64,000 nt of DNA from positions 1,868,838 to 1,932,837 of the forward strand of contig OY782822.1 in the NCBI GenBank assembly GCA_963678335.1, given 5' to 3'. The DNA comes from Arcobacteraceae bacterium. Lineage in GTDB: Bacteria > Campylobacterota > Campylobacteria > Campylobacterales > Arcobacteraceae. Position 1 is the first letter of the stretch; each line of letters begins with the position of its first letter. Positions 36,282-39,157 of the stretch are shown piece after piece. The notes below the pieces were generated by a model, which saw nothing but the letters and a program-made list of their open reading frames with translations, did not search any database and had not been told where the DNA came from. The position numbers and the translations under genes were made by a program.

Positions 36282-37442
36282 TTAATATTTGTCTCTTTTA
36301 AGTTCTAAACTTCCATTAAAAATTTCAGGTACATTTATTTTTGCTTTTATAGAACTAAGAAATGTTTTTTTATCGGTTTCTTTATTTTTGATTTTTATTG
36401 ATTTTAAACTTTCCAGCAGTATAGTATTGCTTTGTGTTATTATATTTGTATCTACACCCGCATCAACTAATACTCTTTTAGATTCATTGATTATATTATC
36501 ATTTAATTCTAACTGTTTATTCTGCTCTTTTAATGTTATCTCTTTATAGATCATCTGAGATTCTAGATTTTTACATTGTGCATACAATTTACTTAATTCT
36601 GTCTGCATTTGTAAAGTTTGTTCTAAACTGACACTTTCAACCATTACAGGTGCACAAAGATAAGCTTTAAGAGCATCAGCTATTTTTTCCAGTGCTTCAT
36701 CTTTATTTTTTGGTTCAACAGAGAGTATAGTATCTTCACCTACTCTTTGAACATTTACATCACTTTCAATACAAAGATCATTTAAAAACTCTTCAAAATA
36801 TTGTAAATATGGTTTTAAGATAGATTGATATTGTTCTGATAAGTTAAATATTGCTTTAAAATTATGTGAAGAAAATTGTTGTTCACATTTGTCAAATTGT
36901 GATAAAACTTGTCTTATTATTTTACTTGATATATTTTGTAAACTAATATTTTTATTTTCAACATTAAATTTATAAATAAATCCAATAGACTTATATGTAT
37001 CTTCTATTGTATTATATAGTTCTATAATTTCATTTGATTTCATTAAATTTAAAAACTCATCAATAAATTTAATAGGATTTTTTTCACCCTTGTATTCTAA
37101 TAAATTAAATGATACCCAAAATTCAAATAATAAACTAGTATTTTCTCTAGTCATTTTTGCTAGTGTAATATTAGATGTTAGATCAGCTTCTCTATCATCT
37201 ATATCTCCACCATGATTGCTAACAAATGAAAAAATAATATCTTCTGGAATATCACTGAATCTTAAATTACCTATGTCAGATAAATTGCAATGTGTACGTA
37301 TTAAATCATTTTCATAATACGAAGTAAATCCATATTCTAATTCATACTCTTTACTTAATATTTTATCATCTAAGTACATTAAGAAATGTTCATCATCAAC
37401 ATAATGAAGTTTAAATCTGTTATTTAATATTTTTTCTTTCAT
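36282..37442 (-). CDS. Hypothetical protein (386 aa), unknown N-terminal domain and coiled-coil C-terminus
   Basis: A long ORF in an AT-rich insert, 22 nt after the PIN gene and 11 nt before hypE. No motif recognised. The C-terminal third is heptad-like (LEQTLQMQTELSKLYAQCKNLESQMIYKEITLKEQNKQLELN). Confidence 0.55.
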   Translation of the reverse strand: MKEKILNNRFKLHYVDDEHFLMYLDDKILSKEYELEYGFTSYYENDLIRTHCNLSDIGNLRFSDIPEDIIFSFVSNHGGDIDDREADLTSNITLAKMTRENTSLLFEFWVSFNLLEYKGEKNPIKFIDEFLNLMKSNEIIELYNTIEDTYKSIGFIYKFNVENKNISLQNISSKIIRQVLSQFDKCEQQFSSHNFKAIFNLSEQYQSILKPYLQYFEEFLNDLCIESDVNVQRVGEDTILSVEPKNKDEALEKIADALKAYLCAPVMVESVSLEQTLQMQTELSKLYAQCKNLESQMIYKEITLKEQNKQLELNDNIINESKRVLVDAGVDTNIITQSNTILLESLKSIKIKNKETDKKTFLSSIKAKINVPEIFNGSLELKRDKY

Positions 37443-37464
37443 ATTTTATTCTTTCTTAAACTAA

Positions 37465-37896
37465 TTAATTTTTTAGAAATTTTTCTAAAGCTTTTTTTGT
37501 TGTAACCAGTTCTATCTTATCACTTACAAAGTTTTTATCATTTGAGATAATTAGATCACATTCTTCTTTTTTTGCTAAAATATATTGCATAGTATCTTCA
37601 AGGTCTTTGAATTTTTGGTTTTCTTTCATTAAACTGCAGGTTTGCAAAACTTCCTGGTTGCTAAATTCAATTATTCTGCAAAATTGATTTATTCGTTCGA
37701 TGGCATCTAAAGCTTTTTGTTTATCTTTTTTTGAAAGGATATAATAAATAGTAGTTATAAGATCACAGCTTGTATACAATTTAATATCATGTTCAATCAA
37801 ATAAGAAAGAACTTTCAAGCTGTTTTGTTCCAAATCCCTTGTATTGTCTTCATTGTCCAAAAATATATTTGCATCTAAAAAAACTTTTTTATACAT
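37465..37896 (-). CDS. PIN-domain toxin (VapC-like ribonuclease)
   Basis: 143 aa. Acidic PIN residues sit in VFLDANIF, DLEDTMQY and IISNDKNF. It overlaps the upstream antitoxin gene by 8 nt. Confidence 0.8.
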   Translation of the reverse strand: MYKKVFLDANIFLDNEDNTRDLEQNSLKVLSYLIEHDIKLYTSCDLITTIYYILSKKDKQKALDAIERINQFCRIIEFSNQEVLQTCSLMKENQKFKDLEDTMQYILAKKEECDLIISNDKNFVSDKIELVTTKKALEKFLKN

Positions 37897-38134
37897 CCAT
37901 ATTTGCCTTTATCGATTGTACTGTCATACCCGGTTCAATCATACCTTTCATCCCGTCAAAAAAGCTATGCAAAGCTTTTAGCTTCTCTTCTTTGCTGACT
38001 TCATTGTATTTTTTCTCTACGAGTTCCTCTACAACTTTTGTCATGGATTTACCCTCTTTTTTTGCTATTGCTTCAAGGTGCTGCGCAACCTCTTTTTTTA
38101 ATACGAAGTTTTTTCTTACGTCATTTGCACTCAT
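37889..38134 (-). CDS. Ribbon-helix-helix (CopG-like) antitoxin
   Basis: 81 aa. The N-terminal KNFVLKKEVAQHLEAIAKKEGKSMTKVVEELVEK fits a beta-strand-helix-helix pattern. Its position is upstream of, and overlapping, the PIN gene. Confidence 0.65.
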   Translation of the reverse strand: MSANDVRKNFVLKKEVAQHLEAIAKKEGKSMTKVVEELVEKKYNEVSKEEKLKALHSFFDGMKGMIEPGMTVQSIKANMDV

Positions 38135-38154
38135 ATTTATCTCCTAAAAAGTCT

Positions 38155-38201
38155 TACATAAAATTCTATACATAATTATATTACATAAAAATACTTATGT
38201 C
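38155..38201. promoter_or_regulatory. Three direct TACATAA repeats plus one inverted copy upstream of the RHH/PIN pair. Candidate antitoxin operator.
   Basis: TACATAA occurs at 38155, 38169 and 38182 (13-14 nt spacing). An inverted TTATGT lies at 38195..38200, 20-65 nt upstream of the RHH start. Confidence 0.5.
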
Positions 38202-38267
38202 AATTTTTATTTATCTTCCCTGCTGAATTTTTGAATAATTCTTTTTATATTTTCTATGTCCATTATT

Positions 38268-39068
38268 TTACTCTTTTTCCCTTATTCTTAAAAAGCTGGC
38301 AAACTTGGGTTTGCCGTTTTTTGTAAGATCGTAATATTTAAAAGTGATGCTCTGCCCTATTTTGGGCGGATTTTGCCTCTCTTTGCCGCTAAAGCCGCCG
38401 CCCAGGTTAAATACAGTGCCGTTGTCAAGTCTTACGACCAGGCTTTTGAAGCTTTTGTCCTTTTTATAGTTGTGCCCTATCACTTCCCCTTCCATGTCAA
38501 AAAAATTCTTTACTTTTAAGCTATAAGGGGTTCTCCCTTTATTATAGGATTTTGAGGGATCTTTTACTATTACACCTTCCCCTTTTAATGCGGTTATCTC
38601 ATCCATGAAGCTGTTTAGGTGTGCTTTGTCCTTGCATTTAATTTGTTTTATGACTTTTAGGTTTTTGTTCGGGTGTTTTTCAAACCACTTTTTTGCTTTT
38701 AGCAGTCTTGAGGGGAAATCCCCCTTTGCGTTCGGTACTTCAAATATATTGTAAGTGATCTGTTCCCATTTGTTTGTTGGGGTCTCGTCCAGGACTATGC
38801 TTTGGATGTTTTCAAAGTCATTTCTCTTGGTGTAAAGTTCCCCGTCAAGTTCAAAAGGGGGAAAGTTTTCTGTAAAACCTGCAGGTGCATGGATGGGGTT
38901 GCCGTTTTTAGTATAAAGTTTTTTACCGTCCCAATAGCCCCTTATCCCGTCAAGCTTTTCACTCATATACCAGTTGGATATATCCTGGTCTTTGTAGATA
39001 CCAGGTTTTTGCAGATCAAGGGAGAAAAGTGATGTGAGAAAAAAAAGGAGATAAAATATTGTTTTCAT
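38268..39068 (-). CDS. Secreted ATP-dependent DNA ligase (Lig E type)
   Basis: 266 aa with a signal peptide (MKTIFYLLFFLTSLFS) and the adenylation motif SEKLDGIRGYW (KxDG). It has the minimal ligase size, EGVIVKD, and an OB-fold tail. Confidence 0.85.
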   Translation of the reverse strand: MKTIFYLLFFLTSLFSLDLQKPGIYKDQDISNWYMSEKLDGIRGYWDGKKLYTKNGNPIHAPAGFTENFPPFELDGELYTKRNDFENIQSIVLDETPTNKWEQITYNIFEVPNAKGDFPSRLLKAKKWFEKHPNKNLKVIKQIKCKDKAHLNSFMDEITALKGEGVIVKDPSKSYNKGRTPYSLKVKNFFDMEGEVIGHNYKKDKSFKSLVVRLDNGTVFNLGGGFSGKERQNPPKIGQSITFKYYDLTKNGKPKFASFLRIREKE

Positions 39069-39157
39069 TTCAACCTTGATTGTTTTGTTATTTTTCGTAA
39101 TTTACTGAAAAGATGATGAGATCCTGTAGTGTACGAGGACAAACTTATCACTTTTTC

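Follow-up and report, generated by a model that had tools for sequence, protein, structure and literature searches.

The described system closest to the locus reported here is the minimal mobile element (Saunders and Snyder 2002), whose definition, with tests in Neisseria meningitidis, we take from PMC3787668. Our locus is the junction between the hydrogenase maturation genes hypD and hypE of an Arcobacteraceae bacterium (GCA_963678335.1); the window, meaning the whole stretch that we analysed, comprises 64,000 nt of contig OY782822.1 (1,868,838–1,932,837, forward strand), and the junction lies near genome 1.906 Mb of a complete 2.73-Mb chromosome. Within the window, hypD and hypE are separated by about 2.9 kb of cargo that encodes a Lig E-type DNA ligase, a toxin-antitoxin (TA) pair made of an RHH-type antitoxin and a PIN toxin, and a 386-aa orphan protein. 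As in the minimal mobile element, variable cassettes or an empty site lie between two conserved genes, the same cassette is found in distant genomes, recombination falls inside the flanks, there are no mobility genes, and the cargo includes restriction and TA genes. The flanks are conserved in 65 family members and in 97 genomes from outside the family, the cassettes between them vary or are missing, one cassette shared by distant genomes is accompanied by flank recombination, and neither mobility genes nor end repeats are found. Two differences stand out: the hyp slot lies inside a maturation cluster of the Campylobacterales, where many genera from several families have it filled, and natural transformation is a presumed route for this organism. 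Very probably, the site between hypD and hypE is such a minimal mobile element, i.e. a fixed slot whose content is replaced by double crossover in the flanks without mobility genes. Allele variety, a between-species tract, the lack of an integrase, a duplication or att sites, and defence-type cargo recurring across family and order are all demonstrated at this site.

Two kinds of hotspot also resemble the hyp slot. Hotspots of horizontal gene transfer that carry no mobile elements (Oliveira et al. 2017, PMC5635113) likewise combine rapid turnover in an interval between core genes with homologous recombination there, but they are statistical and defined within species, whereas the hyp slot is one named interval across an order. 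The cDHS1 and cDHS2 loci of Pseudomonas aeruginosa (PMC10250203) share with it fixed core flanks, changing defence cargo and the lack of a single type of mobile genetic element. Flank recombination has been proposed for cDHS1/2 and is demonstrated for one hyp slot allele; the median size of cDHS1/2 is 26 kb, against a range of 0.3–11 kb here; and, unlike cDHS1/2, the hyp slot shows no flanking non-coding RNA and mixes its cargo with housekeeping-type genes. Known defence systems do recur between fixed flanks, as in core defence hotspots, while many cargo genes are non-defence.

The content of the slot differs between close relatives (G-numbers designate compared genomes and L-numbers compared loci of relatives). 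It is empty in G012 and L063, holds the ligase only in L064 and L065, carries the ligase, RHH-PIN, McrC and McrB in G016 and L058, and carries the ligase, RHH-PIN and the 386-aa gene in the window. L064 is 99.1% identical to the window across 7.8 kb upstream. The view of the first-pass annotation that the cargo is accessory DNA is borne out by the existence of a 99%-identical relative without the RHH-PIN and 386-aa genes and of two others with an empty site. In the allele alignment the RHH-PIN block begins exactly at the position of the hypE start of the ligase-only allele, and similarity to the G016 allele ends at about 37513, inside the 3' end of the PIN gene, beyond which G016 and L058 carry McrC-McrB and the window the 386-aa gene. 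The cargo is layered (ligase, relic of a MazG-like gene, RHH-PIN, 386-aa gene; at least three layers). For this lineage, the ligase counts as the oldest layer and the 386-aa gene, which has McrC-McrB in its place in two relatives, as the youngest.

Direct evidence for exchange through the flanks comes from L058. This locus belongs to the species of G012 and L063, with 99–100% identity in hypB, hypC, hypA and the downstream genes, but the last ~250 nt of its hypD are 96–99% identical to the window lineage, as are the first ~675 nt of its hypE at 87–97%, and the cassette lies between these two arms. The informative sites switch at hypD nt 861–879 (maximum chi-square 130.7, permutation p = 0.001) and switch back at hypE nt 673–676 (maximum chi-square 93.9, permutation p = 0.001). 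An independent assembly contains the same sequence (100% identity across 17,329 nt), and agreement over 17.3 kb argues against L058 being a chimera. The ligase-RHH-PIN-McrC-McrB cassette is common to G016 and L058, whose backbones are ~84% alike: L058 gained it by double crossover in hypD and hypE between species at that distance. The window is itself mosaic, being 99% identical to L064 up to the ligase and 95–96% across hypE-hypA and the core gene that follows (hypE 95.8%), and its hypE-hypA spacer matches that of G016 at 146 of 146 positions on a backbone of 92%. In the mechanism that we propose, RecA-type double crossover in hypD and hypE would swap the content of the slot, and the DNA would arrive by natural transformation, as the presence of comEC and dprA (both over cut-off in the genome) and of a lig E gene would allow.

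All nine open reading frames, in the order given by the first-pass annotation with the cargo between hypD and hypE, were confirmed at their places. So were the family calls: scores exceed the NCBIfam cut-offs for every hyp gene and for the ligase, and the Pfam PIN cut-off for the 143-aa protein, while the RHH matches stay below cut-off; the 11-nt gap ahead of hypE was also given correctly. A genome search found one copy of each hyp gene. The features of the locus are as follows.

40581–41363, minus strand: hypB, NCBIfam cut-off passed.
40297–40581, minus strand: hypC, NCBIfam cut-off passed.
39158–40279, minus strand: hypD (TIGR00075, 523.8 bits), the conserved upstream flank; its last ~250 nt form a recombination arm.
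39069–39157, minus strand: spacer between hypD and the ligase gene, with an imperfect hairpin that has two partial copies elsewhere in the genome.
38268–39068, minus strand: Lig E-type ligase, 266 aa (PRK09125, 319.9 bits, cut-off 200).
38207–38263, minus strand: 5' relic of a MazG-like gene, 18 codons, similar to the MazG-like proteins and genes of the slot.
38175–38203, minus strand: predicted sigma-70 promoter of the RHH-PIN operon (TTGACA, 17 nt, TATAAT).
38155–38188, minus strand: three phased TTATGTA repeats, a putative RHH operator (starts at 38188, 38175 and 38161).
37889–38134, minus strand: RHH-type antitoxin, 81 aa, with sub-cut-off Pfam matches.
37465–37896, minus strand: PIN (VapC-like) toxin, 143 aa (PIN_3, 47.7 bits; PIN, 37.2 bits).
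36282–37442, minus strand: 386-aa orphan of no curated family, with a variable N-half (residues 1–190) and a conserved C-half.
36271–36281, minus strand: 11-nt spacer before hypE, with the purine-rich ribosome-binding site of hypE.
35281–36270, minus strand: hypE (TIGR02124, 446.7 bits), the conserved downstream flank; its first ~675 nt form a recombination arm.
34793–35134, minus strand: hypA, NCBIfam cut-off passed, followed by a terminator-like hairpin (34769–34787); a second slot has this gene as its upstream flank.

We compared composition with the genome open reading frames (median GC 0.40; percentiles refer to these). The TA pair and the 386-aa gene had been described as AT-rich, which holds for the PIN gene (GC 0.255, 2nd percentile) and for the 386-aa gene (GC 0.238, 1st percentile; GC at third codon positions, GC3, 0.11), both foreign-like; the RHH gene is only mildly low (GC 0.36, 15th percentile). 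The ligase gene is native-like (GC 0.39, 38th percentile; GC3 at the 56th percentile), so that AT-richness is confined to a portion of the 2.9 kb.

Lig E proteins are periplasmic ATP-dependent ligases, described as near-ubiquitous in Campylobacterales and as lacking fixed synteny (10.64898/2026.03.22.713542; PMC10799422), and in Neisseria Lig E is reported to raise transformation with nicked DNA (10.64898/2026.03.22.713542). The window ligase has the minimal two-domain layout, the KxDG motif and the hydrophobic N-terminus of this group, from which we found no difference; its position in the slot is lineage-specific. Besides PRK09125, it matches the Pfam ligase and OB domains, it aligns to PDB 8u6x including the catalytic KxDG motif (E 7.9e-63), and by eye its N-terminus consists of a basic residue followed by 12 hydrophobic residues. 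It is the sole ligase E copy in its genome. A Lig E homologue occurs in 60 of the 81 family genomes, usually outside the slot, as in the empty-site genome G012, which speaks against the idea that the ligase is foreign cargo; within the slot Lig E is also found in G016, G073, G210, G238, G245, L058, L064 and L082, from three genera. Downstream of the ligase gene, the MazG relic shares 11 of 14 residues with the slot MazG-like protein of G010 and matches the starts of MazG-like genes by blastn (E 5e-7 to 7e-5). The MazG-like proteins of the slot match Pfam MazG-like and are its commonest residents; tblastn of the genome found no intact copy. Upstream of the ligase gene, the hairpin of the hypD-ligase spacer has a z-score of -1.45 in the window, against -3.1 to -4.5 in relatives, and the window spacer is without the clean terminator-like hairpin and the 65-nt repeats of other alleles, of which only an 11-nt remnant is seen. 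In G016, G012, L063 and L065, one or two tandem 65-nt hairpin units and a terminator-like hairpin follow hypD (L031:7900–8060; L063:11123–11280). We considered these tandem hairpins as a genome-wide repeat and rejected this, there being no copy in the window's genome.

In order to describe occupancy, we called a junction split when hypD and hypE, on one contig and in the same order, are at least 300 nt apart; kin are not independent, and the figures are descriptive counts. Across the genus, the hypD-hypE junction is split in 15 of 21 loci, compared with 0/22 for hypB-hypC, 1/22 for hypC-hypD and 5/17 for hypE-hypA. In the family it is split in 30 of 65 genomes and in 12 of 19 genera, nine of which show both states. 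These numbers do not fit the earlier description of an unusual integration point. Outside the family the split is found in 20 of 97 other Campylobacterales genomes, several families being never split, and in a few of these cases (G065, G069, G105) the gap reflects a rearrangement or native genes and not cargo. The statement that hypD and hypE are normally adjacent is thus right for most other families sampled (77 of the 97 genomes) but not for Arcobacteraceae. The first-pass annotation had also proposed that one gene order fixed across the genus would speak against an insertion; the junctions of relatives reveal a fixed site with varying content.

The sampled slots hold 77 protein families, mostly on the hyp strand, and the order of shared cargo varies, the ligase preceding the TA pair in the window and following it in G210. 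MazG-like proteins are found at 16 loci, PIN at 10, Lig E at 8, the 386-aa family at 8 in the set, and McrC and McrB at 5 each; further cargo matches PemK, YhcG/PDC-S02, PDC-S49, Fic, HipA, GmrSD, SNF2, KAP NTPase and pVip (viperin-like). A radical-SAM protein in the slot of G104 (L101:2891–3709) is probably the source of the pVip match in the pooled scan. A four-gene block (L051:6111–12176; L097:1438–7456) encoding proteins of ~375, 180, 1180 (DUF3584) and 190–250 aa occupies the same slot in two families; in G024 and G119 its gene sizes are like those of MksBEF/Wadjet, an assignment that we rejected as PADLOC gave no match. The genes for a 326-aa protein and UPF0014 (29957–31644), which lie downstream of hypA in the window, lie within the hypD-hypE slot at 8 or 9 other genus loci.

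An older origin of the arrangement has to be weighed against exchange. If it were a fixed rearrangement, inherited vertically while relatives lost different subsets, one would account for a ligase that is native-like and sits in the slot of three genera, for the recurrence of RHH-PIN and MazG-like genes, for a cross-family cargo identity lower than that of the flanks, and for the MazG relic as a loss by deletion. Against this, strains 99% alike differ in content (L058 versus L063; the window versus L064), the sampled slots hold dozens of families in varying order, the flanks are mosaic and the youngest layer is AT-rich. The L058 tract refutes vertical inheritance as a full account, which leaves it only a slim chance as the general explanation, although it may apply to the ligase layer and to cross-family sharing.

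The minimal mobile element reading is in turn weakened by several points. The clean two-ended tract is that of the relative L058 and does not concern the 386-aa gene of the window, for which a 1.5-kb contig is the only trace of a donor, and the first entry of genes into the slot lies outside what this tract demonstrates. Cargo identity between families is below flank identity, so that old residence with differential loss explains the sharing as well as recent transfer does; recent cross-family transfer of cargo was tried as an explanation and, with these lower cargo identities, is not demonstrated. Weaker promoter-like sites within the 386-aa gene number 53, against 46.5 expected, which is no more than chance. 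Finally, much cargo is not related to defence (MazG-like, UPF0014, LOG-family, aldo-keto reductase, GGDEF), and the label of defence hotspot is consequently only partly true.

A small RHH gene that overlaps a PIN gene, with a promoter overlapped by short direct repeats, is what makes the pair resemble VapBC-type systems; it differs in an antitoxin below family cut-offs and in an operon that appears open-ended, running on into the cargo and hypE-hypA. The overlap is 8 nt, the weak Pfam matches of the antitoxin are to DUF6364, VAPB_antitox and RHH_1 (all below cut-off), and RHH is always paired with a PIN gene in 6 slot loci. The first-pass annotation suggested a promoter within the cargo that could drive hypE-hypA, and a perfect sigma-70 site, a candidate for this role, does exist at 38203–38175; it is the only 12/12 site in 31500–42200, one of 15 in the genome, and is kept before RHH in six other loci (G016, G010, G008, G023, L058, L071). 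In G008 its -35 box is made by the last hypD codons (L037:10984), and in G024 the promoter is kept although the TA genes are gone (L051:2667). The TTATGTA repeats overlap the -10 box and the start region, are largely kept at other RHH-PIN loci, and are likely the RHH operator. A promoter overlapped by phased repeats is the usual layout for RHH autorepression.

No terminator-like site was found in the 1.9 kb between the TA promoter and hypE, while one follows hypA. Occupied alleles share the hypE ribosome site and an MDK start, and empty or ligase-only alleles start with MTDK, a pattern indicating that the hypE ribosome-binding site came with the cassette. The cassette would thereby supply its own hypE ribosome site, co-directional packing would keep hypE-hypA expressed, and the autoregulated TA promoter would read through 1.9 kb into them. 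Judging from the sequence, RHH-PIN-386-hypE-hypA would most likely form one transcript, to which read-through from hypB may contribute, which is possible as the window allele is without the clean hairpin seen after hypD in G016 and L063. On balance, we favour the explanation that expression of hypE-hypA is probably maintained by tightly packed co-directional cargo, the own ribosome site of hypE and TA promoter read-through, to which hypB read-through may be added. The hairpin in empty alleles suggests that, in this lineage, transcription is already divided between hypD and hypE; a seam of this kind would account for the tolerance of the site for cargo.

The 386-aa protein has no match in Pfam, NCBIfam or PADLOC. 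We found 27 near homologues in Campylobacterales, and its C-half is shared by 597 clusters at 50% identity, some of whose members are fused to pentapeptide, receiver, CHAT, STAS or HTH domains; PADLOC on 122 homologues returned single matches only, via the fused domains. Identity to homologues is 20–34% in the N-half and 54–94% in the C-half (33% and 94% for the nearest). The nearest copy, L144, has the order PIN, gene, hypE; its DNA is 97–100% identical over the C-half and 43–60% over the N-half, and the 22-nt spacer upstream is identical. Near-identical C-half DNA and spacer around a divergent N-half indicate that the N-half of the gene has been exchanged, as read from these alignments. Other members add DUF6166 or carry HTH_73 in place of the N-half; a literature search on these two domains found nothing relevant. 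The C-half tree is poorly resolved among slot copies. The full-length AlphaFold model has a predicted local distance difference test (pLDDT) score of 66.5 (N-half ~90) and a separate C-half model 82.5, with a predicted alpha/beta N-domain that resembles YbjN weakly and a C-half predicted as a ferredoxin-like domain plus coiled coil. Fold matches are weak, the best VIA Z scores being 6.8 and 6.3 (ferredoxin-like folds) and the best Foldseek hit being YbjN (E 2.8e-3); no match above Z 7 was obtained for either model, a result that neither names nor excludes a known fold, and comparison with the ESM Atlas by features and by shape led only to clusters without a name and to one weak YbjN-like row. 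The invariant residues of the wider family are aromatic, not catalytic, and there are no conserved Cys/His metal ligands. Tentatively, the protein may act in defence on its own, sensing through an exchangeable N-terminal half and oligomerising through the conserved C-half, while the TA pair would stabilise the slot; the basis for the defence reading is that the gene is patchy, AT-rich, interchangeable with McrBC and modular.

A link of the cargo to hydrogenase maturation, the 386-aa protein being a Hyp accessory factor or the TA promoter coupling hypE-hypA to stress, would fit the position of the family, since 10 of its 16 placeable loci lie between hypD and hypE (Arcobacter, Sulfuricurvum, Sulfurimonas and metagenomes), and would fit a TA promoter upstream of hypE with no terminator-like site between. 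The other placeable members, however, lie after polA (3), at addB/addA (2) and among TA genes (1); the genome collection gave 5 matches to the family and most hyp-bearing genomes lack one; the wider family has aromatic invariant residues and no conserved Cys/His metal ligands; and close relatives have McrBC in place of the 386-aa gene, all of which makes such a link very improbable. That RHH, PIN and the 386-aa gene are parts of a single three-component module is hardly credible: in the window, L144 and L071 a family member does come directly after PIN, with the identical 22-nt spacer in L144, but in six other loci RHH-PIN is followed by McrC, SNF2, MazG-like, ligase or UPF0014, and the family occurs without RHH-PIN in L066, L067, L072, L074, L140 and L141.

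The search for mobility features gave no target-site duplication, att repeat or inverted repeat at the slot ends, where the repeats present are AT-rich and due to chance. It also gave no match to an integrase or a transposase in the profile scan of the window proteins of the slot, no tyrosine recombinase within ~490 kb (the nearest at genome 1.413 and 2.520 Mb), and, with no attC model run, no repeated palindromes resembling attC sites, the spacers being 11–22 nt. The single insertion with duplicated target or att ends that had been expected at the boundaries is accordingly not what the layered cargo shows. Placement of the 2.9 kb by one mobile element (transposon, integrative element or integron array) through site-specific or transposase integration is highly unlikely, for although the cargo is all on one strand, combines a TA pair with AT-rich genes as integron arrays do, and has a sharp junction exactly at the start codon that hypE has in the ligase-only allele, the slot and its surroundings contain neither integrase nor transposase and show no duplication, inverted ends or repeated attC-like sites, the spacers are too short for attC, the ligase stands without the remaining cargo in L064/L065, and the crossovers fall hundreds of bases inside the flanking genes. 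The integron reading was rejected on the distance to the nearest tyrosine recombinases, and a transposon or insertion sequence (IS) on finding none of transposase, terminal repeats and target-site duplication.

Further observations concern sites around the hypD-hypE slot. A second slot follows hypA (31715–34802), which means that hypE-hypA is bracketed by two exchange slots. It holds an AT-rich 841-aa P-loop protein in the window and an unrelated 584-aa PtuA/AAA_21-like ATPase in G012, and is empty in G016, L058, L063 and L064; the hypA of G012 is window-like (33 versus 15 informative sites). The hypE-hypA spacer (35135–35280) is structured and has a partial copy at genome 1283514–1283593 (E 7e-9); elements resembling it sit between hypB and hypC in G008 and G024; the L064 and G012 alleles lack it. 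Upstream of hupE/hypB, on the opposite strand, a 222-aa zinc-ribbon gene (42155–42823) is kept in many genomes of the family and order, for which a conserved gene, perhaps a regulator, fits better than a decayed IS. At ~59150–62375 the window has an AT-rich 3.2-kb stretch (GC 0.24), where G016 has a different 2.7 kb. Against the nearest relative we counted at least 14 comparable variable sites in 400 kb (about one per 30 kb), five of them in the window, so that the slot as such is ordinary.

The mechanism is already known as a way of moving genes and the finding is mostly ordinary; the exception is the uncharacterised 386-aa passenger protein. Our literature search found no paper describing the hypD-hypE slot, the breadth of use of this junction or the passenger family. 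The analysis does add a named junction that is easy to amplify and whose accessory and defence genes change from genome to genome in Arcobacteraceae and other Campylobacterales. It also documents a clean swap between species in nature, both of its crossovers being located within hypD and hypE, and points to a so far nameless family as a candidate for defence. A wider reading, which we regard as speculative and rather unlikely, would see in the junction a slot for defence cargo that spans the order Campylobacterales and is so far undescribed, and in the 386-aa gene the first of an unnamed single-gene anti-phage family, its C-half joined to exchangeable N-terminal sensors (its own alpha/beta domain, DUF6166 plus its own, or HTH_73) that are swapped by intragenic recombination. 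If true, mining the hypD-hypE junction would yield new defence genes, and expression of hypE-hypA would be tied to a toxin-antitoxin promoter.

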